Shown here in pieces: positions 185-11,427 of a stretch of DNA of 11,436 nt; the first letter of the stretch is position 1, and each line of letters opens with the position of its first letter. Source of the DNA: a virus; the UHGV virus genome UHGV-1406243; one strand, given 5' to 3'. The translations under genes were made by a program, and so were the position numbers. The notes under the pieces were generated by a model that saw nothing but the letters and a program-made list of their open reading frames with translations, was not told the origin of the DNA and made no database searches.

Positions 185-1399
185 GTGAGCAGAGCAATGA
201 ACAAACTGAGCGATACCTTGCTAAGGAAACTTCATGGTAAGCCAGCGGAGAAAAACACGTTTTATAGTGATGGCGGAAACCTGAGCGTGAAATATTTAAC
301 ATCAGGGAAATTGACCTGGTATTTCACATACAGGGCCGGAACGGGAAGGGAGACACGACCCGAACGCATTAAGCTGGGAAGTTATCCTGATCTGAGCCTG
401 AAAGCAGCCAGGGAAAAAGCCGCACAGTGTCGCACATGGCTGGCTGAGGGGAAAAATCCACGTCATGAGATGAATTACACCGTACAGGAAGCGTTAAAGC
501 CCGTAACGGTTGGCGATGCGCTCACCTACTGGCTTGAGTATTACGTAAAGGAAAACCGCGTGGATTATATCGCCCTGAAAAGGCGACTTAATAATCACGT
601 AATACAGCAGATTGGTGCTATGCCGCTGGATAAATGCGAGCTACGGCACTGGCTGGCCTGTTTTGACCAGGTGGTAAAGCGAACGCCTGTTACTGCCGGA
701 TTCGTGCTACAGGCGTGCAAACAGGCGCTTAAGTTCTGCCGTAGGCGGCGCTATGCAATCAGCAACGTTCTGGACGATCTGAACGTTGCGGACGTTGGGA
801 AAAAACCGGATATAAGCGAACGTGTCTTAAGTAACAAAGAACTTGGCGAATTATTGCAGGCACTGGACAAAAAAATATTCTCCCCTTACTACGTCGCGTT
901 AATCCGCCTCCTGATTGTCTTCGGAGCCAGAACGGTAGAACTGAGGTTATCGGAGATCGGGGAGTGGGATTTTACGGAAATGCTATGGACCGTTCCGAAG
1001 GAGCACAGCAAAACGAAGGTCGCAATATTCCGGCCCATACCGGAAGCGATCCTGCCGTTCGTCACGCAGCTGGTGGAGCAGAACAGGCACACGGGCTTAT
1101 TGCTGGGGGAAGTGAAACAGGAGGCCAGCGTATCGCAGTATGGAAGATTAGCGCACAGGAGGCTTAATCACCCTCACTGGTCACTGCATGACATCCGGCG
1201 CACCTTTACAACCATGCTGAACGATTTAGGCGTTGATCCGCATGTCGTGGAGCAGCTTACAGGCCACCAGATGCCAGGAATGCAGCGAGTTTATAATCAT
1301 TCCCGTTATCTGTTTTCAGTATGCGCATCTAGCGAATCACTCTTTAAAGAGCGAGAAAAAAGGCATGGAACAATATTTTATGCCTTTGTATTAACATGA
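185..1399 (+). CDS. int: Tyrosine recombinase / site-specific integrase, P4-type
   Basis: 404-aa ORF. The N-terminus (LRKLHGKPAEKNTFYSDGGNLSVKY..LGSYPDLSLKAAREKA) matches the P4-integrase arm-binding domain pattern. The C-terminus carries HDIRRTF..LGH..VYNHSRY catalytic-type motifs (His-x-x-Arg and terminal Tyr). GTG start at 185 is 5 nt after GAGGGGG; an alternative ATG lies at 197. Confidence 0.9.
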   Translation: MSRAMNKLSDTLLRKLHGKPAEKNTFYSDGGNLSVKYLTSGKLTWYFTYRAGTGRETRPERIKLGSYPDLSLKAAREKAAQCRTWLAEGKNPRHEMNYTVQEALKPVTVGDALTYWLEYYVKENRVDYIALKRRLNNHVIQQIGAMPLDKCELRHWLACFDQVVKRTPVTAGFVLQACKQALKFCRRRRYAISNVLDDLNVADVGKKPDISERVLSNKELGELLQALDKKIFSPYYVALIRLLIVFGARTVELRLSEIGEWDFTEMLWTVPKEHSKTKVAIFRPIPEAILPFVTQLVEQNRHTGLLLGEVKQEASVSQYGRLAHRRLNHPHWSLHDIRRTFTTMLNDLGVDPHVVEQLTGHQMPGMQRVYNHSRYLFSVCASSESLFKEREKRHGTIFYAFVLT

Positions 1400-3866: not shown

Positions 3867-4166
3867 ATGAAACTTAAATATTCTGGCTTAACTGCCAGTG
3901 GCAACACTCACCCTAAATTTACGCGCGGCGATATTTACCGCGACCAGTACGGCGGCACGGTAATGATTAAGGGCGTGGAAGAACGGCGCGTAACCTACCG
4001 CCGTGAAGGTTACGAATATGATTGCGTGATGCCTGTTTATCAGTTCCGGCGTGATTTTTCTCTGGTACAGACCGCGCCGCATAACGTGTCCACCAGCAAC
4101 GCCAGGGCACGGGCAAACATCCAGAAGCTGAAAACCATGATTAACGGATTCAGGGGTAAAAAATGA
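3867..4166 (+). CDS. Hypothetical protein (99 aa)
   Basis: ATG 3867 is preceded by GGAG. Its stop overlaps the primase start (ATGA at 4163..4166). Confidence 0.7.
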   Translation: MKLKYSGLTASGNTHPKFTRGDIYRDQYGGTVMIKGVEERRVTYRREGYEYDCVMPVYQFRRDFSLVQTAPHNVSTSNARARANIQKLKTMINGFRGKK

Positions 4167-5917
4167 AACTGGCACCGAACGTAAAACAGCAGTCACGCGG
4201 CATAAAACACAAAGAAACAGAAGTCATTATTTTTGCGGGTAGTGATGCCTGGTCACACGCAAAACAATGGCAGGAACATGACGCGCGTATGGCCGGAGAT
4301 AATGAGCCTCCTGTGTGGCTTGGGGAGCAGCAGTTATCCGAACTGGATAAGCTGCAAATTGTGCCGGAAGGCAGAAAATCCGTGCGCATATTCAGGGCCG
4401 GATATCTTGCGCCAGTAATGATAAAGGCGATTGGTCAGAAGCTGGCGGCGGCAGGCGTACAGGATGCAAATTTTTACCCTGATGGTATGCACGGTCAGAA
4501 GGTGGAGAACTGGCGCGAATATCTGGCCCGTGAGCGCCAGAATCTTTCTGATGGTCTGGTCATTGAGCTTCCGGTAAAGCAAAAGGCGCAACTTTCGCAG
4601 ATGGCGGACAGTGAGCGCGCGCAGCTGCTTGCCGATCGCTTTGATGGCGTTTGCGTACATCCTGAAAGTGAAATCGTTCACGTATGGCGCGGCGGGGTAT
4701 GGTGTCCGGTCAGCACAATGGAACTTAGCCGCGAAATGGTGGCGATCTATTCAGAGCACAGGGCCACTTTCAGCAAGCGCGTAATCAATAACGCCGTGGA
4801 AGCGTTAAAAGTTATTGCCGAACCAATGGGCGAGCCGTCCGGCGATTTGTTGCCGTTCGCCAATGGTGCGCTTGACCTGAAAACGGGGGAATTTTCCCCG
4901 CACACGCCGGAGAACTGGATCACCACGCACAACGGCATTGAGTACACGCCACCAGCACCAGGGGAGAACATCCGCGATAACGCGCCAAACTTTCATAAAT
5001 GGCTTGAGCACGCAGCCGGAAAAGACCCGCGCAAGATGATGCGTATATGTGCCGCGCTGTACATGATTATGGCGAACCGGTACGACTGGCAGATGTTTAT
5101 TGAGGCCACCGGAGACGGCGGGAGCGGTAAAAGTACATTCACACACATAGCCAGCCTTCTGGCAGGGAAACAGAACACGGTAAGCGCTGAAATGACATCG
5201 CTTGATGATGCTGGTGGACGTGCGCAGGTTGTCGGGAGTCGTCTTATCGTCCTGGCTGACCAGCCGAAATATACAGGCGAAGGAACGGGCATCAAGAAAA
5301 TCACGGGCGGTGACCCCGTGGAAATTAACCCGAAATACGAAAAGCGTTTCACGGCGGTAATCAGGGCGGTGGTGCTGGCGACCAACAATAACCCGATGAT
5401 ATTCACCGAACGGGCCGGAGGTGTGGCACGTCGTCGCGTGATTTTCCGTTTCGACAATATCGTCAGTGAGGCCGAAAAAGACAGGGAGCTACCGGAAAAG
5501 ATCGCGGCTGAAATCCCTGTCATTATCCGCCGATTGCTGGCGAACTTTACCGACCCTGAGAAGGCACGGGCTTTACTACTGGAACAGCGTGACGGTGATG
5601 AAGCTCTGGCAATAAAGCAACAGACGGATCCGGTTATTGAGTTTTGCCAGTTCCTGAATTTTCTGGAGGAAGCACGCGGCCTGATGATGGGCGGCGGTGG
5701 CGATTCAGTGAAGTACACGACCAGAAACAGCCTTTACCGCGTCTATCTGGCGTTTATGGCGTACGCAGGCAGGAGCAAACCGCTAAACGTAAATGACTTT
5801 GGCAAGGCTATGAAGCCAGCCGCGAAAGTTTACGGACATGAATATATTACGCGGAAAGTTAAGGGAGTAACGCAGACTAACGCAATAACAACAGACGAGT
5901 GCGACGCGTTTTTATAA
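4163..5917 (+). CDS. Replication initiator: P4 alpha-like primase/helicase (D5-type SF3 NTPase domain)
   Basis: 584-aa ORF. Walker A GDGGSGKST and Walker B-like RLIVLADQ are read directly in the C-terminal half. Gene size and the iteron array immediately downstream match satellite Pri-Rep / P4 alpha proteins. The N-terminal primase domain was not confirmed motif by motif. Confidence 0.85.
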   Translation: MKLAPNVKQQSRGIKHKETEVIIFAGSDAWSHAKQWQEHDARMAGDNEPPVWLGEQQLSELDKLQIVPEGRKSVRIFRAGYLAPVMIKAIGQKLAAAGVQDANFYPDGMHGQKVENWREYLARERQNLSDGLVIELPVKQKAQLSQMADSERAQLLADRFDGVCVHPESEIVHVWRGGVWCPVSTMELSREMVAIYSEHRATFSKRVINNAVEALKVIAEPMGEPSGDLLPFANGALDLKTGEFSPHTPENWITTHNGIEYTPPAPGENIRDNAPNFHKWLEHAAGKDPRKMMRICAALYMIMANRYDWQMFIEATGDGGSGKSTFTHIASLLAGKQNTVSAEMTSLDDAGGRAQVVGSRLIVLADQPKYTGEGTGIKKITGGDPVEINPKYEKRFTAVIRAVVLATNNNPMIFTERAGGVARRRVIFRFDNIVSEAEKDRELPEKIAAEIPVIIRRLLANFTDPEKARALLLEQRDGDEALAIKQQTDPVIEFCQFLNFLEEARGLMMGGGGDSVKYTTRNSLYRVYLAFMAYAGRSKPLNVNDFGKAMKPAAKVYGHEYITRKVKGVTQTNAITTDECDAFL

Positions 5918-5929
5918 TTTTTTGTAATT

Positions 5930-6160
5930 GCTGTCTACCCTGTCTACCTGAGTAAAGAAAAATACATTTAATTCAGTGCATTAAGTTAGGTAGATAGCCT
6001 TTTTTTACTGTCTACCCACTATCTACCCTCTCTACCTGATTTTACCTGAATCAGACAGGGAGGTAGACACGGGGTAGATAGTGGATAAAAGCACTCTACC
6101 CCGCTGAAAGCCGCGCCATTACTGGTATGAGGGCCACTAAGGTAGATAAGGTAGACAAGG
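5930..6160. other. Putative origin of replication: iteron array of YCTACC / GGTAGAY motifs with dyad organisation; duplicated at 6379..6609
   Basis: At least 11 copies of the core (T/C)CTACC. Direct copies lie at 5933..6048 (TGTCTACCCTGTCTACCTG, TGTCTACCC, ATCTACCC, TCTACCTG) and inverted copies at 6061..6160 (GGTAGACAC, GGTAGATAG, GGTAGATAAGGTAGACAAGG), centred near 6055. It sits directly downstream of the primase gene. Confidence 0.55.
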
Positions 6161-6205
6161 GGAGGCACAACTCAAAACTTTTTAAACGAGGGGGTAAAAA
6201 TAAAT

Positions 6206-6262
6206 ATGCACACTTCAGGGAAATTTAATAAATCACTCAAAATGACTTTGGCAAGGCTATGA
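6206..6262 (+). pseudogene. Truncated duplicate of the start of the 92-aa gene (18 codons, then stop), created by the tandem duplication
   Basis: Same RBS and first 12 codons (MHTSGKFNKSLK) as the gene at 6655; the reading frame then runs into the duplicated primase 3' fragment and stops. Confidence 0.4.
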
Positions 6263-6654
6263 AGCCAGCCGCGAAAGTTTACGGACATGAATATATTACG
6301 CGGAAAGTTAAGGGAGTAACGCAGACTAACGCAATAACAACAGACGAGTGCGACGCGTTTTTATAATTTTTTGTAATTGCTGTCTACCCTGTCTACCTGA
6401 GTAAAGAAAAATACATTTAATTCAGTGCATTAAGTTAGGTAGATAGCCTTTTTTTACTGTCTACCCACTATCTACCCTCTCTACCTGATTTTACCTGAAT
6501 CAGACAGGGAGGTAGACACGGGGTAGATAGTGGATAAAAGCACTCTACCCCGCTGAAAGCCGCGCCATTACTGGTATGAGGGCCACTAAGGTAGATAAGG
6601 TAGACAAGGGGAGGCACAACTCAAAACTTTTTAAACGAGGGGGTAAAAATAAAT

Positions 6655-6933
6655 ATGCACACTTCAGGGAAATTTAATAAATCACTCAAAAAACGCAGAG
6701 ACAGAACAGAACCGAAATATCGCGCGTTAGACATGACAGAGCACGCTTTAAAGGTGGCAATCAGAACGATAGACCGCCACGCGGGGGAAGGATACGCGAA
6801 AGCACATCCCGAACTGATAAGCGCATTCATGACCACGACGGCGGCAAATTTTGCCACGCTGACAGAGCGGGAGATTGCCGAAGCGGAACAGGTAACAACC
6901 ATCAACGTTAAAACCGGAGAGGTGGAATCATGA
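6655..6933 (+). CDS. Hypothetical protein (92 aa)
   Basis: Strong RBS GAGGGGGT upstream; stop overlaps the ssb start (ATGA). Confidence 0.65.
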   Translation: MHTSGKFNKSLKKRRDRTEPKYRALDMTEHALKVAIRTIDRHAGEGYAKAHPELISAFMTTTAANFATLTEREIAEAEQVTTINVKTGEVES

Positions 6934-7352
6934 CAGCACAGATAGCAGCTTACGGGCGGCTGGTGGACGACCCGCAGGTAAAACAGACCAGCAAGGGCAC
7001 ACCGATGACGCTGGCGCGTATGGCGGTCCCCCTTCCGTGCAGCCAGGCAGATGACGGAACGGCGACGATGTGGTTATCCGTCCTGGCATTTGGCAGACAG
7101 GCCGAAGCACTGGAAAGGCACCGCAAGGGTGAACTCCTGAGCGTGGCGGGTAACATGCAGATCAGCCAGTGGACTGGGCAGAACGGAGAAACGCGGCAGG
7201 GCTGGCAGGTTATCGCAGACAGTGTAATCAGTGCGCGAACGGCGCGACTGGGCGGCAAAAAAGGTCAACAGGGCCAGGCTACTGACGCGCTGAACAGGGC
7301 AAAACAACAGGCGGGGAATGATGATCCGTACGGGGATAACATACCGTTTTAA
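6930..7352 (+). CDS. ssb: Single-stranded DNA-binding protein (short SSB with acidic C-terminal tip)
   Basis: OB-fold pattern comparable to E. coli SSB (IAAYGRLVDDPQVKQT..WLSVLAFGRQAEALERHRKGELLSVAGNMQISQWTGQNGETRQGWQV) and C-terminal DDPYGDNIPF matching the conserved D-D-D-I-P-F tail. Confidence 0.85.
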   Translation: MTAQIAAYGRLVDDPQVKQTSKGTPMTLARMAVPLPCSQADDGTATMWLSVLAFGRQAEALERHRKGELLSVAGNMQISQWTGQNGETRQGWQVIADSVISARTARLGGKKGQQGQATDALNRAKQQAGNDDPYGDNIPF

Positions 7353-7368
7353 GCGACGAGTGACAGAA

Positions 7369-7390
7369 GCCGGAGCAATCCGGCTTTTTT
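7369..7390 (+). terminator. Rho-independent terminator after ssb (GCCGGA-gcaa-TCCGGC + TTTTTT)
   Basis: Hairpin and T-run are read directly. A near-identical hairpin recurs at 9810..9832. Confidence 0.6.
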
Positions 7391-7470
7391 ACGGGTCCTC
7401 CTGGCGGGGTGGGCCTGAACACGGGGCGGGAAGCGCGGAAAAAAGCGCATTTTTGTGATTTTATCGTCAT
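7388..7470 (+). other. Degenerate cos-like sequence (cosQ-like TTTACGGGTCCT, then ACGGGGCGGGAAGCGCGG in place of the lambda cosN core)
   Basis: Shares TTTACGGGTCCT and ACGGGGCGG with the cos at 9830..9900, but the 12-nt cohesive-end core is disrupted. Likely a relic or a divergent site. Confidence 0.35.
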
Positions 7471-7565
7471 CATCATCATGAGCGTAATTTATTGTTTTTA
7501 ATTGTTTTGATGCAAAAAAGATGATGGTTGTGGTTAATTTTCGTTCGACATCTTTGCAGGCAGAT

Positions 7566-7606
7566 AAAAAAGCCCGATAAGGTCAGAGGTGGCTTATCGG
7601 GCTTTT
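7566..7606. terminator. Bidirectional rho-independent terminator (10-bp perfect stem GCCCGATAAG / CTTATCGGGC, A-run upstream, T-run downstream)
   Basis: Read directly: AAAAAAGCCCGATAAGgtcagaggtggCTTATCGGGCTTTTG. Confidence 0.6.
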
Positions 7607-7683
7607 GCATATGAGGCTTTTTGGTGCACTGACACACATGAGCGGGATCATCATTTCATAATTTGCAACACAACTCAATATCA

Positions 7684-7732
7684 TTGCACAAAACGCAATC
7701 CTGATTATAATCAGAGCTGGATGAACATCCAG
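7684..7732 (+). promoter_or_regulatory. Candidate promoter of the capsid operon (-35 TTGCAC 7684..7689, 16-bp spacer, perfect -10 TATAAT 7706..7711) with a 7-bp inverted repeat CTGGATG-AA-CATCCAG (7717..7732) just downstream
   Basis: Hexamers and palindrome are read directly; the location between the upstream terminator and the RBS of the 68-aa gene fits an operator-controlled promoter. Confidence 0.45.
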
Positions 7733-7767
7733 TTATGATTTTTTAAGTCGAAGAGGAATTTCTTACT

Positions 7768-7974
7768 ATGGCTGAAGAGAAAAAAGGCGGTGTTTCGGTG
7801 TACATAAGCCCCGAAATCGTGGAGGTGCTCAAGCAGCGCCACAAAAAAAACTATGAGGCTGGCGTGGCGGCTGGACTGGATCCGCTGATGACGCCGGAGC
7901 CGTCGATAGGTTCACTTGTACGCTCTTATTTACTTGCGGCGCTTGGGATGCATAAAAATTATGGGGGTGAATAA
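7768..7974 (+). CDS. Hypothetical protein (68 aa), translationally coupled to the major capsid gene
   Basis: RBS AGAGGA upstream; its stop TAA overlaps the capsid ATG (TAATG). No recognisable similarity by eye. Confidence 0.65.
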   Translation: MAEEKKGGVSVYISPEIVEVLKQRHKKNYEAGVAAGLDPLMTPEPSIGSLVRSYLLAALGMHKNYGGE

Positions 7975-9029
7975 TGGCAGGCAAAGCAACGGCACTTAAC
8001 ACTAACCAGCTTTTCATGTACCTGAATCGCGGGGATATTGCGGATTTTAAATTCAGCCCTCTGTTTACTACGCTGTTTTTCCCGAACGTGGCGACATTCA
8101 GCACGCAAAACATCATGCTGGATACCCTGGACATTGAAGAAGTCACCATGTCGGCGTTTTGTTCGCCTATGGTGGGTAGCCAGGTTCAGCGCGATAAAGG
8201 GTACGAAACCAGCACGATTAAACCTGGCTACATGAAGCCAAAGCACGAAATCGATCCAACGAAAACCATCATGCGCATGGCTGGAGAAGATCCGGCACAG
8301 CTTAACGACCCTACCTATCGCCGTATGCGCCTGATTACTGGCAATATGCGCCGCCAGATAAACGCCATAAAAGCGCGCGTGGAATGGCTGGCGGTAAATG
8401 CGGTAACGACCGGAAAAAACATCATTGAGGGCGAAGGCATAGAGCGCTATGAAATCGACTGGAAGATACCGGAAAAAAACATCATAGAGCAGGCCGACGG
8501 GAAAAAATGGTCAGCGCAGGACAAAGAAACCCACGATCCAATCTATGATATCGAACTATACGCCGATCAGGCTGGTTGCCCCGCAAACGTCATGATTATG
8601 GGCGCTGAGGTATGGCGAACGTTACGCAGCTTTAAAAAATTCCGTGAGCTGTACGATCTTTCCCGTGGTTCAGAATCCGCCGCCGAACTGGCCTGTAAAA
8701 ACCTGGGCGAAGTGGTGAGCTTTAAAGGCTATCTTGGTGATCTGGCCCTTATCGTCTATTCCGGCAAATACACTGACAGCGATGGTACCGAAAAATATTT
8801 CCTTGAGCCTGATTTGCTGGTCCTAGGTAACACCAACAATAAAGGGCTGGTGGCCTATGGTGCGATAATGGATCAGGAAGCGGTAAGAACGGGCGCAACA
8901 CAAAACATGTTTTACCCGAAAAACTGGATTGAGGACGGCGATCCGGCGATTGAGTACGTGCAGACACACAGTGCACCGCAGCCGGTACCGGCAGATATTC
9001 GCAAATTTGTTACCGTCAAAATTGGTTAA
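7974..9029 (+). CDS. Major capsid protein, phage lambda gpE family
   Basis: Multiple collinear blocks match lambda gpE as I recall it: FKFSPLFTTLFF vs FKFDPLFLRLFF; PGYMKPKHEIDP vs PGYVKPKHEVNP; EDPAQLNDPTYRRMR vs EDPQNLADPAYRRRR; RGSESAAELACKNLGEVVSFKGYLGDLALIVYSGKY vs RGSNSELETAVKDLGKAVSYKGMYGDVAIVVYSGQY; YPKNWIEDGDPAIEY..SAP vs YPKNWVTTGDPAREF..SAP. Length 351 aa vs 341 aa. Confidence 0.92.
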   Translation: MAGKATALNTNQLFMYLNRGDIADFKFSPLFTTLFFPNVATFSTQNIMLDTLDIEEVTMSAFCSPMVGSQVQRDKGYETSTIKPGYMKPKHEIDPTKTIMRMAGEDPAQLNDPTYRRMRLITGNMRRQINAIKARVEWLAVNAVTTGKNIIEGEGIERYEIDWKIPEKNIIEQADGKKWSAQDKETHDPIYDIELYADQAGCPANVMIMGAEVWRTLRSFKKFRELYDLSRGSESAAELACKNLGEVVSFKGYLGDLALIVYSGKYTDSDGTEKYFLEPDLLVLGNTNNKGLVAYGAIMDQEAVRTGATQNMFYPKNWIEDGDPAIEYVQTHSAPQPVPADIRKFVTVKIG

Positions 9030-9041
9030 CGGGGGGATTCT

Positions 9042-9377
9042 ATGGACACTCCATACATTGAGTTATTTGCAGGCAGTCAGCGGGTCGCCACGACGCTGGT
9101 ACATTTTGCCGCTGATGCTGGCGTTATTCAGGAATTTACCCCGCTGATGCTGGCAGACAATGGCGAGTTTAAGCCGTGGGATGGTCAGGAATCTGGCAAG
9201 GCTGTTTATCTGACCTCGTACCCTGTGGACACGTCAAAGCAGAAATCAGCACAGTGTTACAAGACGGGGATTTTCAATATTGCCGCCGTTAACTGGCCTG
9301 AGAGCGTCGACACCGATGCGAAAAAATGCGCCGCCTTTGCGGGTTCCGGCGTATCCGTTCAGCCGCTGGCCCGATAA
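9042..9377 (+). CDS. Head decoration protein, phage lambda gpD family
   Basis: 111 aa vs 110 aa for lambda D. Blocks TPLMLADNGEFKPWDG vs TPLMLDTSSRKLVAWDG and YKTGIFNIAAVNWPESVDTDAKKCAAFAGSGVSVQ vs [44 protein letters not shown] upstream. Confidence 0.88.
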   Translation: MDTPYIELFAGSQRVATTLVHFAADAGVIQEFTPLMLADNGEFKPWDGQESGKAVYLTSYPVDTSKQKSAQCYKTGIFNIAAVNWPESVDTDAKKCAAFAGSGVSVQPLAR

Positions 9378-9389
9378 GCAGGGGGAACG

Positions 9390-9803
9390 ATGGCAACGAA
9401 TGAAAGCGTCATGACGCTACCGCTGGCGAGTAAATTTAAAGCCGAAGCGCGGGCAATGGCTGACAGAGGTTTATCAACCTACGAGGCCGTATATCAACTC
9501 AACAAACTGGAAGAGCAGGACAAGCCGCGCGCTGATGCGATTATGGCGCTTCATGAACATAACGACTATCAGCCGCTGTTACGTGCAATGGCAAACGTGC
9601 CATGTATTAGCGTCGATAATGCTCGTGAAATCCTGAACATGACCATAGAGCAGGAGCGCCCAAAGGTTGCGCCGGAGCTTACCGCAGCCTTTGAAAACTT
9701 TATGGACATGCACAGCCCGAAAGCCGTATCACCCGGCATGGCATACGACGGCAGAAACCAGGGCGATGAAGGCGACGTCGATCGCATACTGAAAACCATC
9801 TGA
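9390..9803 (+). CDS. Hypothetical protein (137 aa), last gene of the capsid module
   Basis: RBS GGGGG upstream; followed by a terminator. No recognisable motif by eye. Confidence 0.7.
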   Translation: MATNESVMTLPLASKFKAEARAMADRGLSTYEAVYQLNKLEEQDKPRADAIMALHEHNDYQPLLRAMANVPCISVDNAREILNMTIEQERPKVAPELTAAFENFMDMHSPKAVSPGMAYDGRNQGDEGDVDRILKTI

Positions 9804-9809
9804 CATAAG

Positions 9810-9832
9810 GCCGGAGAAATCCGGCTTTTTTT
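9810..9832 (+). terminator. Rho-independent terminator (GCCGGA-gaaa-TCCGGC + TTTTTTT), abutting the cosQ-like sequence
   Basis: Read directly; near-identical to the terminator at 7369..7390. Confidence 0.6.
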
Positions 9833-9912
9833 ACGGGTCCTTTCCGGCATATGGACCCGTTACGGGGCGGCGACCTCGCGGGTTTTCGCTATTTATGACG
9901 TTTTTCCGTGAA
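9830..9912 (+). other. Lambda-type cos site: cosQ-like TTTACGGGTCCTTTCCGG, cosN with the 12-nt cohesive-end sequence GGGCGGCGACCT (9864..9875), and a proximal cosB with one R3-like element
   Basis: 40 contiguous bases at 9858..9897 (GTTACGGGGCGGCGACCTCGCGGGTTTTCGCTATTTATGA) match the junction of the lambda right and left ends as I recall it, and TTTACGGGTCCTTTCCGG matches the lambda right-end sequence. It lies about 90 bp upstream of the Nu1-like gene, as in lambda. Confidence 0.8.
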
Positions 9913-9965
9913 GGTGACACCACCACCACTTGATTAATATTTAACCATGCAGTTAAGGTAACATT

Positions 9966-10400
9966 ATGATTGATAAAGCTTGTTTTGTAAGTCAGCAGGA
10001 AATAGCTGAACATTTCAAGGTTAACAGAACCACTATTCGCGCATGGACCAAACAGGGGATGCCGTATCTTAATGCGGATCGCGGAAAGTCTGGCGGTTAT
10101 CACATCGGGCATACATTGCTTTGGTCTTCAGGTAAAAGCCGTCTTGAGACCATCAGATATCACGTAGAAACCAGTGCGCTGGAAAAAATTATGTTTGCCA
10201 GGCTGCTTTCATCTGAGCGTGACGAGTACTCCAGTGAAGAAACAGAACATCGATTTGATGAAGGTTTGCAGATTTACGGCTATTCACCGGAAGATGTGAG
10301 CAAGGCACGAAATAAAATGGCTGGCTTTCTGGCTGGGTGGCGTCATGCCATAAGCGTTCGCCGTGCCAGCATGGAGCAATCAGCCGATACAGAACAGTAA
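9966..10400 (+). CDS. Terminase small subunit homologue, lambda Nu1-like N-terminal DNA-binding domain with a divergent, shorter C-terminal part
   Basis: VSQQEIAEHFKVNRTTIRAWTKQGMPYLNADRGKSGG aligns with lambda Nu1 VNKKQLADIFGASIRTIQNWQEQGMPVLRGGGKGNEV. 144 aa vs 181 aa; I could not align the C-terminal half to Nu1. Sits directly downstream of the cos site. Confidence 0.8.
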   Translation: MIDKACFVSQQEIAEHFKVNRTTIRAWTKQGMPYLNADRGKSGGYHIGHTLLWSSGKSRLETIRYHVETSALEKIMFARLLSSERDEYSSEETEHRFDEGLQIYGYSPEDVSKARNKMAGFLAGWRHAISVRRASMEQSADTEQ

Positions 10401-10453
10401 AGCCGATAACTTGTTAATCACTCGCAGCAATGCATGTGATTTGTGCACACTTT

Positions 10454-10568
10454 CGGTTAACTGGTTCGATGTCCGGTTTTAGTGTCTGTTTTTTGCGCAT
10501 GTCCGGTTCATGGAAAGCATGTTTTTATATTTTTCATATGGTTAACTTGCAGAGAAACCGGACATGGA
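10454..10568 (-). repeat. cosB-like repeat set belonging to the inverted cos: three ATGTCCGGTT elements (10470..10479 and 10499..10508 direct, 10557..10566 inverted) separated by an AT-rich stretch (10520..10545), plus a GGTTAAC duplication
   Basis: Repeats are read directly. Their spacing from the inverted cosN (about 40, 100 and 135 bp) and the AT-rich spacer resemble the lambda R3-I1-R2-R1 layout, but with a different R sequence (TCCGGTT vs lambda CGTTTCC). Confidence 0.45.
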
Positions 10569-10570
10569 TC

Positions 10571-10654
10571 CCGAAAAATTTTCATAAATAGTGAAAACGC
10601 GCGAGGTCGCCGCCCCGTAACGGGCCATAATTCCAGGAAGGACCCGACGACACC
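10571..10654 (-). other. Second lambda-type cos site in inverted orientation (reverse complement of cosN AGGTCGCCGCCC at 10604..10615, with cosQ-like and proximal cosB flanks)
   Basis: The reverse complement of 10571..10654 reads GGTCCTTCCTGG..GTTACGGGGCGGCGACCTCGCGCGTTTTCACTATTTATGAAAATTTTTCGG, matching the lambda cos junction on both sides of cosN. It is an inverted copy of the cos at 9830..9912. Confidence 0.75.
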
Positions 10655-10679
10655 AGACTATCAGAGCGATGGGGGCACA

Positions 10680-10961
10680 ATGACAGAAGCCGAACTACTG
10701 GGATTAATCCGCCGCGTTACCGGAATCAGCCAGCAGCATGACGAACAGGCCACGCAGCCGGACAGCGTGACCGCCGAAAATTACGCGCGTGTGGTTGCTG
10801 AGGTGATGCGCCGTGATGGTATCCAGCTTAATGATGTGGATATGCGCAACATACGGATCCGCGTTCTTGAAATGCTGGCCTACAATCGCCGCGTGGCACT
10901 GTATCGGGAAACGGAGAAAATTACGTACCACTGGAAGAAGCCGGAGCGGTTACGGCGTTAA
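10680..10961 (+). CDS. Hypothetical protein (93 aa)
   Basis: ATG 10680 follows GGGGG by about 5 nt. It is in frame with the 159-aa ORF in the track, whose upstream extension runs through the inverted cos site and is unlikely to be coding. Confidence 0.55.
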   Translation: MTEAELLGLIRRVTGISQQHDEQATQPDSVTAENYARVVAEVMRRDGIQLNDVDMRNIRIRVLEMLAYNRRVALYRETEKITYHWKKPERLRR

Positions 10962-10967
10962 CGAGTA

Positions 10968-11012: not shown

Positions 11013-11298
11013 AAAAGACGGTTTAACCGTTAATTAAAAATTGACGGGATTTTGTGCTTTCCGGACGACGTGACCAACGTCATTTTTTAGCGAAAAGTTC
11101 TGATTAAGGTCATTGTCTGAATGGTCATAATGACCACTCCTACAAAACAGGTAAAGCCCACCAGCCTGATTAACAGTTAACCGGAAAAAAAATCCGGTAG
11201 CCCCGTTATGGGGATCCCCATATCAACATTAACGCCCCTCATGAATTAGCGCGCTTCCCCCTGGAAAGATGACCCGCCTGTATATTTCTTGTGTCTAT

Positions 11299-11355
11299 TT
11301 GTTCCACGTTGTTTCATACAGTGCACCGAACGGTGTAGTCACTGGTGTAGTCATT
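11299..11355. repeat. attR-side arm region: TTGTTCCACGTTGTTTCA followed by tandem 12-mers GGTGTAGTCACT / GGTGTAGTCATT (11332..11355); direct copy of 96..161
   Basis: CGGTGTAGTCACTGGTGTAGTCA is read at 11331..11353, identical to 137..159. Confidence 0.5.
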
Positions 11356-11427
11356 TTGCGATTTATGGCACTTTTTGTAGTGCAAATCATTTAATTAAAT
11401 CAATGCGTTAAGTGAAATTAGTTATAT

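Follow-up and report, generated by a model that had tools for sequence, protein, structure and literature searches.

The window analysed here, the whole 11,436-nucleotide stretch of the viral genome UHGV-1406243, is by its sequence a phage-inducible chromosomal island (PICI) of the EcCICFT073 type, in which a 175-bp segment between ssb and the capsid operon, here called cosU, resembles a complete phage cohesive-end site (cos). The island measures about 11.2 kb between imperfect att repeats (88-163 and 11282-11357) and has the constituents of a Gram-negative PICI, namely an integrase, att repeats, a primase/ori module, an rpp gene with an adjacent cos and a size in the range of approximately 10-20 kb (Table 1). 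From 7566 to 10962 it is about 96% identical to EcCICFT073 of strain CFT073; its capsid operon matches the Pfam domains Phage_cap_E and HDPD as well as phrog_3255, phrog_29, phrog_49, phrog_1999 and phrog_53, and the N-terminal helix-turn-helix (HTH) of its RppA matches the small terminase family phrog_57. We describe here the sequence anatomy of cosU and its surroundings, their homologies, the mosaic boundaries of the window and the distribution of the arrangement in the population, and we consider what part such a site might play in packaging.

Table 1. Features of the window and the basis on which each was placed.
Feature	Positions	Strand	Basis or remark
Integrase	185-1399		
D5-type primase	4163-5917		
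ssb, last gene of the replication arm	6930-7352	+	Pfam SSB, phrog_44
Hairpin T, upstream copy, GCCGGA-GCAA-TCCGGC + T6	7369-7390	+	Pattern match; fold -22.3 kcal/mol, z = -4.1
cosU, candidate extra cos, complete, of the DUF1441-TerS (Stx phage/mEp460) class	7391-7565	+	Homology to phage Rz-terS interval
Hairpin 2 (AAAAAAGCCCGATAAG...CTTATCGGGCTTTT), left mosaic boundary of the lambda-type capsid module	7566-7612	+	Fold of 7555-7620 -25.6 kcal/mol, z = -4.0
68-aa open reading frame (ORF), first of the capsid operon (7768-9803)	7768-7974	+	
gpE-family major capsid protein	7974-9029	+	Capsid operon
gpD-family decoration protein	9042-9377	+	Capsid operon
137-aa scaffold-like protein	9390-9803	+	Capsid operon
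Hairpin T, downstream copy, GCCGGA-GAAA-TCCGGC + T7	9810-9832	+	Pattern match; fold -17.4 kcal/mol, z = -3.2
Lambda-type cos 5' of rppA, taken as EcCICFT073 cos1	9833-9960	+	99.4% identical to EcCICFT073
rppA, 144-aa HTH protein	9966-10400	+	142/144 residues identical to EcCICFT073 RppA
Inverted lambda-type cos, taken as EcCICFT073 cos2	10469-10646	-	99.7% identical to EcCICFT073
93-aa protein	10680-10961		

The initial annotation placed the capsid module between direct repeats of a terminator plus a cosQ-like sequence, and these repeats are real, cos-related and positioned within one base of where it put them. The unit GCCGGAG(c/a)AATCCGGC-T6/7-ACGGGTCCT occurs in two copies, at 7369-7399 and 9810-9841, both on the + strand, and the genes between them are the four that had been listed (the 68-aa ORF and the genes of the gpE-family capsid, gpD-family decoration and 137-aa proteins). 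Only two stretches of the window match the 22-nt hairpin pattern GCCGGAGNAATCCGGCTTTTTT exactly (7369-7390 and 9810-9831, + strand in each case), and 200 shuffles of the window yielded no match to it at all. After the hairpin, both copies continue with ACGGGTCCT, which in the downstream copy is preceded by one additional T; aligned with each other, the two units are identical at 30 of 31 positions and differ by one indel, and past the unit they still align through a cosN-like core (ACGGGGCGGGAAGCGCGG upstream, ACGGGGCGGCGACCTCGCGG downstream), the longest exact run common to both repeats being about 15 nt. The sequence CGGGTCCT is found three times in the window (7392-7399 and 9834-9841 on the + strand, 10639-10646 on the - strand) against an expectation of 0.2. 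The repeated unit is a composite, of which the first 22-23 nt are a terminator hairpin (hairpin T) and the last 9 nt a conserved cosQ abutting the U-tract, and its upstream copy runs on, as had been noticed, into a cos-like site. The downstream copy runs into the known lambda-type cos before rppA, and the upstream copy opens a complete 175-bp site of a second specificity class.

Within cosU, the 7-bp cosQ GGGTCCT lies at 7393-7399, and a predicted 12-nt cohesive end, GGGCGGGAAGCG, lies at 7424-7435 with CG on both flanks; the cosN context CACG/GGGCGGGAAGCG/CG (7420-7437) keeps the left half GGGCGG and both nick-flanking CG pairs. Compared with lambda, the first six bases of the cohesive end and both CG pairs are the same, and the differences fall at positions 7, 8, 10 and 12. 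In the natural variation of lambda-like cos sites, cosQ, cosN positions 1-6 and the flanking CG are conserved and positions 7-12 are free to vary (PMC4669245). Since the differences of cosU are limited to positions 7-12, its cosN core is not disrupted but belongs to another natural class. The view that this site is a degenerate lambda cos with a broken cosN has consequently to be given up: the framework CG/GGGCGG....../CG is kept, and over about 170 bp (7386-7555) the identity to the cos region of Shiga toxin (Stx) phages, both Stx1- and Stx2-converting (VT1-Sakai, Stx2), is 87-90%. Phage mEp460 matches this segment at about 77% identity over roughly 110 bp. Inverted CATCATC/GATGATG elements lie in the cosB-like part (about 7441-7555); when a consensus for integration host factor (IHF) was sought by eye in the AT-rich spacer of this part, the nearest match was one base out of register.

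In VT1-Sakai the homologous segment sits between Rz and a gene for a 158-aa protein that overlaps a lambda-A-like large terminase gene (terL), and this 158-aa protein and its counterpart in mEp460_4F5 are of the DUF1441 family, not Nu1. Because the DUF1441 gene comes directly after it, the segment of the cosU type stands where cos lies in a group of lambdoid phages that use another small terminase (TerS). The mEp460_4F5 record ends with ...GACGGGTCCTCCCGGTGGGGTGGCCTG and starts with CCACGGGGCGGGAGCGCGG, 5 nt before the predicted nick; the record was therefore linearised 5 nt from that nick, an indirect hint that sites of this class may be cut there. VT1-Sakai/Sp15, Stx2_112808 and mEp460 share with cosU a homology that extends from cosQ through CATCATCAT and the GATGATG elements, but in these phages the cos lies between Rz and the DUF1441 terS, followed by terL, whereas no terminase gene comes after cosU in the island, where hairpin 2 and the capsid operon are found instead. 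The left flank differs as well: cosQ is preceded in the phages by an AT-rich palindrome (GATAAnCATTATC) and in the island by the GC-rich terminator. Both lambda (48440-48472; locus L004) and VT1-Sakai (L002) read GATAAnCATTATCAyTTT, then A or G, then CGGGTCCT, and homology between island and phage begins at the T-run.

The other two cos sites of the window are of the lambda type. In the site proximal to rppA, cosQ (9835-9841), a 23-nt spacer and the cohesive end GGGCGGCGACCT (9865-9876) align with lambda cosQ and cosN. The inverted site, between rppA and the 93-aa gene, has its cosQ at 10639-10645 and its cohesive end at 10604-10615, includes a 78-nt inverted repeat that is 82% complementary to 9834-9911, and matches 179 bp of the Rz-Nu1 intergenic interval of Escherichia phage PhiR12_1 at 93% identity; unlike the rppA-proximal cos, it has a phage-like cosB. 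All three sites of the window share with lambda the cosQ GGGTCCT, the cosN framework and a downstream segment in the position of cosB, but the cosB of cosU resembles that of phages with a DUF1441 small terminase, not Nu1, and the three sites have three different cosB regions. EcCICFT073, its two cos sites and Rpp are already known: the island is induced and transferred by a helper phage (PMC6092414), cos1 and cos2 are both experimentally functional (PMC6092414, PMC6739421), and cos1 depends on RppA, which redirects the small terminase of the helper (PMC6092414, PMC6739421, PMC9026076). The present island would then hold three cos sites with three cosB specificities, one private, one inverted and PhiR12_1-like, and one resembling that of the DUF1441 phages.

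EcCICFT073 agrees with the window in its series of int, the alpA region, primase, ssb, the 68-aa ORF, the gpE-like capsid, the gpD-like decoration and 137-aa genes, cos, rppA, inverted cos and the 93-aa gene, and in having hairpin T on both sides of the capsid module. It differs in carrying perC between ssb and the hairpin and in having no cos between hairpin T and hairpin 2, where the window has its third, heterologous one. The homology of the window to EcCICFT073 (L091) and to the island of O157 (L001) begins exactly at 7566; in both of these islands, hairpin T is joined to hairpin 2 by the 6-nt linker GCGCCC, at the place where the window has 175 bp. cosU is accordingly a precise presence/absence block between the two hairpins. 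Mosaic breakpoints of the window lie at about 7234 and 7566, and the right boundary of the module lies at about 9904 or at 10661, depending on the relative compared. By these comparisons the window is a mosaic, with a left arm in the arrangement of a sister group of islands, described below, and a right arm of the EcCICFT073 type. The left boundary at 7566 is 167 bp past the upstream repeat, and the boundaries of the module do not coincide with the repeats.

The distribution of the block was followed in 5,426 complete E. coli genomes and in IMG/VR contigs; a scan of GTDB species-representative genomes with the capsid protein found no relatives. Among 75 loci that share this capsid gene, the region 5' of the capsid module contains a hairpin only, at -437 (29 loci), hairpins at -801 and -437 (20 loci), the arrangement of the window, with a cos core at -554 and in most also a hairpin at -605 and cosQ at -582 (20 loci), or nothing recognisable (6 loci). 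A hairpin is present upstream of the module in 67 of the 75, and a hairpin with a lambda-type cos is present downstream of it, at the same offset, in every locus that is long enough. The copies of the hairpin bracket the module, as the initial annotation stated, and they do so in most relatives, although the repeat does not serve as the boundary of the module. At least 80% of 7300-10000 is held by 591 of the complete genomes, and 162 of these (about 27%) have the full series of ssb, hairpin, cos and hairpin 2. In E. coli Nissle 1917 the hairpin-cosQ junction is matched exactly, which makes the presence of such an island in this strain probable, and strain CFSAN067215 has a copy that is 99.9% identical. 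In 17 unique window-type sequences, 5.8% of the columns in the 120-bp cosB-like part of cosU vary, with no indels, compared with 42% in the 3' end of ssb and 28% in the 68-aa gene; the most variable part of the block is cosQ. At the downstream cos sites, cosQ is intact in 76 of 76 islands with the EcCICFT073-type capsid module and in 50 of 50 sister islands, and is thus altered in none of 126.

The sister islands (L006, L007 and L092) have the primase-ssb backbone and the 93-aa gene in common with the window, and their capsid gene encodes a fusion of a ClpP protease and a major capsid protein. In these islands, ssb followed by the same hairpin T and by a cos of the DUF1441-phage class is the standard arrangement, and a second, direct cos of this class lies 3' of the capsid gene behind another hairpin (GGCGGCnnnnGCCGCC-T6/7); approximately 45 of 80 sister loci from IMG/VR (L093-L172) have a cos on both sides of the capsid gene. 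The window is 95.7% identical to L092 over 6901-7475 (ssb, hairpin and cos core), the identity of this core segment to L092 ranging from 92 to 96%, and its positions 7380-7555 are 89% identical to the downstream cos of L092. An origin of cosU by recombination between the upstream and the downstream cos of a sister island was considered and could not be established: only the two leftmost sites (7391 A and 7405 C) are upstream-like, the remainder is of the downstream/phage subtype, and the upstream copies are themselves variable. Some sister islands encode a DUF1441 homologue of their own where Rpp would be; that of L007 (9852-10337) comes right after the downstream cos, shares 49% identity with the VT1-Sakai small terminase and may be the counterpart of Rpp for that phage class. 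In some protease-capsid islands (L135-L137, L144, L154, L159 and L162), a lambda-type cosN is found directly 3' of the fusion gene, which indicates that capsid type and cos type reassort. In L006 (NZ_CP027454.1; locus 1-312 and 10508-11626), the island sits inside the large terminase gene of a resident prophage, a helper-embedded arrangement of PICIs that has been described (PMC10111431).

Hairpin T has the features of a Rho-independent terminator, consisting of a 6-bp GC-rich stem, a GNRA loop and a U-tract on the gene strand 3' of a stop codon, from which it is separated by 16 nt after ssb and by 6 nt after the 137-aa gene. In 82 related loci it is present in 171 copies, all on the gene strand and with the loops GCAA, GAAA or GTAA only, and it is found 2-3 times per island. 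At least five different genes end just before the copy that lies 5' of the capsid module, among them the 74-aa gene, several PerC variants and SSB; in the island of O157:H7, perC, the 74-aa gene and the capsid operon are each followed by the hairpin. The initial annotation had named a generic host terminator as the finding that would undo its reading. A 40-mer of hairpin and cosQ matches 1,277 of the 5,426 complete E. coli genomes, in each at up to 10 places (median 2). This rules out a generic terminator of the host, present as it is in only these genomes with 1-10 copies each, although the motif is indeed generic within the island family. An origin from phages is ruled out likewise, as 50,697 phage records gave no real hit, and the exact hairpin-plus-cosQ pattern was not found in GTDB species-representative genomes. 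On this sequence evidence, hairpin T is the standard terminator of the island family, placed at the 3' end of successive cassettes (ssb, perC, the 74-aa gene and the capsid operon). A consensus terminator scan of the window listed neither copy, and the predicted terminator activity is deduced from folding and from conservation across the family.

We lean slightly toward the interpretation that cosU offers helper phages of a second class an additional site at which to package the island. In this proposal, cosU would let helpers with a DUF1441 small terminase start packaging of the island directly, through the phage-like cosB and without Rpp. We favor it because cosU retains cosQ, GGGCGG and the flanking CG, which are the parts reported as selected (PMC4669245), because its cosB-like part is far less variable than the adjacent genes, and because live phages of the Stx type carry a segment 87-90% identical with the DUF1441 terS directly after it. 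The precise presence or absence of the block (20 of 75 loci; 162 of 591 genomes), the mEp460_4F5 record linearised 5 nt from the predicted nick and the roughly 45 of 80 sister islands with a cos on both sides of the capsid gene point in the same direction, as does the close match of the downstream cos, rppA and the inverted cos to EcCICFT073 (99.4%, 142/144 aa and 99.7%), in which both cos sites are functional. Several observations weigh against this interpretation. Cleavage at cosU, its use and the widened helper range that would follow are predictions from sequence. The spacer from cosQ to the nick is 24 nt in cosU, whereas lambda and both lambda-type sites of the window have 23 nt; in the phage homologues of the cosU class the spacer is about as long as in cosU. 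In addition, the centre of cosN in the cosU class differs in length among relatives, with 11-14 nt between CACG and CGGAAA. Recent spread, and not selection, might also account for the low diversity of the block. The same capsid module is found without the upstream cos in about 73% of the relatives, among them EcCICFT073, the model island known to be transferable, so that this cos is dispensable. Finally, the upstream cosQ is altered in 3 of 19 islands of the window type and in 19 of 50 sister islands, counted as sequences and not as independent events, with shared ancestry uncorrected; the changes are of at least three kinds (GGGTTCT, GGGGCCT and AGGTACT; loci L008-L087 and L093-L172). Such alteration upstream and never downstream suggests that the termination function of the upstream site is dispensable or under relaxed constraint, while cosN and cosB are kept.

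These last points lend weight to the main rival, in which cosU is a non-functional scar of an exchange between a protease-capsid island and an island of the EcCICFT073 type and has been kept by hitch-hiking. The window is clearly mosaic around cosU, most relatives lack the block, and cosQ, the most variable part within it, is altered in upstream copies and never in downstream ones; however, the block is complete from cosQ through cosN to cosB, its cosB-like part has accumulated no indels and a fraction of the variation seen in the genes on either side (5.8% against 28-42%), and its identity of 87-90% to the cos sites of live phages has been retained. We regard such a scar as possible but less likely than a packaging site. 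The same variability of cosQ counts against a different proposal, that cosU acts on the existing lambda-type helper of the island, offering it another place to terminate or serving as a decoy by which the packaged length is altered or the helper is interfered with. Termination in lambda-like phages is independent of cosB, and the lambda and N15 terminases show no cosN specificity (PMC4669245); in cosU, cosQ is present, the left half of cosN is conserved and the sequence past cosN is partly lambda-like, and the site lies 2.44 kb ahead of the rppA-proximal cos and points the same way. Yet cosQ, the element of termination, is the least conserved part of the block, the phage-like cosB that termination does not need is the best conserved, and termination at cosU would produce cohesive ends mismatched at 4 of 12 positions, all of which makes this proposal improbable. 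Least probable of all, in our judgment, is the scenario suggested by the initial annotation, that the capsid module was taken as a cassette, together with its own cos, from the head region of a lambdoid phage after the loss of Nu1 through Nu3, and that the repeats allow homologous recombination to delete or swap it. The module is indeed flanked by direct repeats, a direct pair of cos sites around the capsid gene is common in sister islands, and capsid and cos modules reassort among islands. Nevertheless, the predicted deletion product, of the 7399/9842 type, was found in none of the 5,426 complete E. coli genomes, with no match above 56% of the query, and the analogous capsid-less product of L092 was found in none of them either, which speaks against the supposed recombination route. 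An exact run of approximately 15 nt is below the usual minimum for RecA-dependent recombination, and the loops of the two hairpins have stayed distinct throughout the family (GCAA and GAAA), so that no sign of ongoing exchange between the copies is seen. Nor does the supposed acquisition of cos and head genes together agree with the left boundary at 7566 instead of at the repeat, with the occurrence of the same module in EcCICFT073 and most other relatives without an upstream cos, or with the affinity of the upstream cos to phages that have another small terminase and another set of head genes.

Two further observations concern the neighborhood of these sites. Positions 5791-6239 and 6240-6688 form a perfect 449-bp tandem duplication that comprises the 3' end of the primase gene and, downstream of it, the probable ori, in which TACCCACTATCTACCC recurs in inverted orientation; the segment is present only once in EcCICFT073 and in L092. 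At 7715-7734, between a promoter-like site (7655-7684) and the start of the 68-aa gene, there is a hairpin with a T-run (AGCTGGATGAACATCCAGTT ATGATTTTTT) that could be an attenuator of the capsid operon.

Outside the Gram-negative islands, the cos-type staphylococcal satellites SaPIbov4 and SaPIbov5 also carry cos sites of the helper type, and SaPIbov4 has been reported to have two putative cos sites (PMC6092414); the hosts and sequences are unrelated and the terminase family is different, so that the resemblance would be a functional analogy. In the literature searched, we found no description of a third, heterologous cos in a PICI, of Stx phages as helpers or of direct cos pairs around the capsid gene of the sister islands. 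Why some PICIs hold several different cos sites was raised and left open in the papers on EcCICFT073. Returning to cosU as a site for a second class of helper, we tentatively suggest, with somewhat less than even confidence, a more general proposal: that PICIs of this family carry a set of cos sites of differing specificity, composed of a private, Rpp-dependent cos and of mimics derived from phages of the Nu1-TerS class (PhiR12_1, 93%) and of the DUF1441-TerS Stx class (87-90%), each being a key to the packaging machine of one helper. In such a set, cosU would be specialised for initiation only, which would explain why its cosQ is dispensable.

The terminator-plus-cosQ repeat is not the boundary of a recombination cassette, and its dissection removes a model that was tempting but unsupported. 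Two of the three cos sites of the island closely resemble those of two different groups of live phages, one of which includes Stx-converting phages. If the proposal of a cos set with different specificities is true, it would answer the question raised by the work on EcCICFT073 as to the purpose of multiple cos sites, and Stx-converting phages could mobilise EcCICFT073-like islands. If cosU works, approximately a quarter of the EcCICFT073-like islands would be packageable by a second class of helper, which would bear on the predicted spread of these islands, on their helper range and on the design of PICI-based delivery vehicles.

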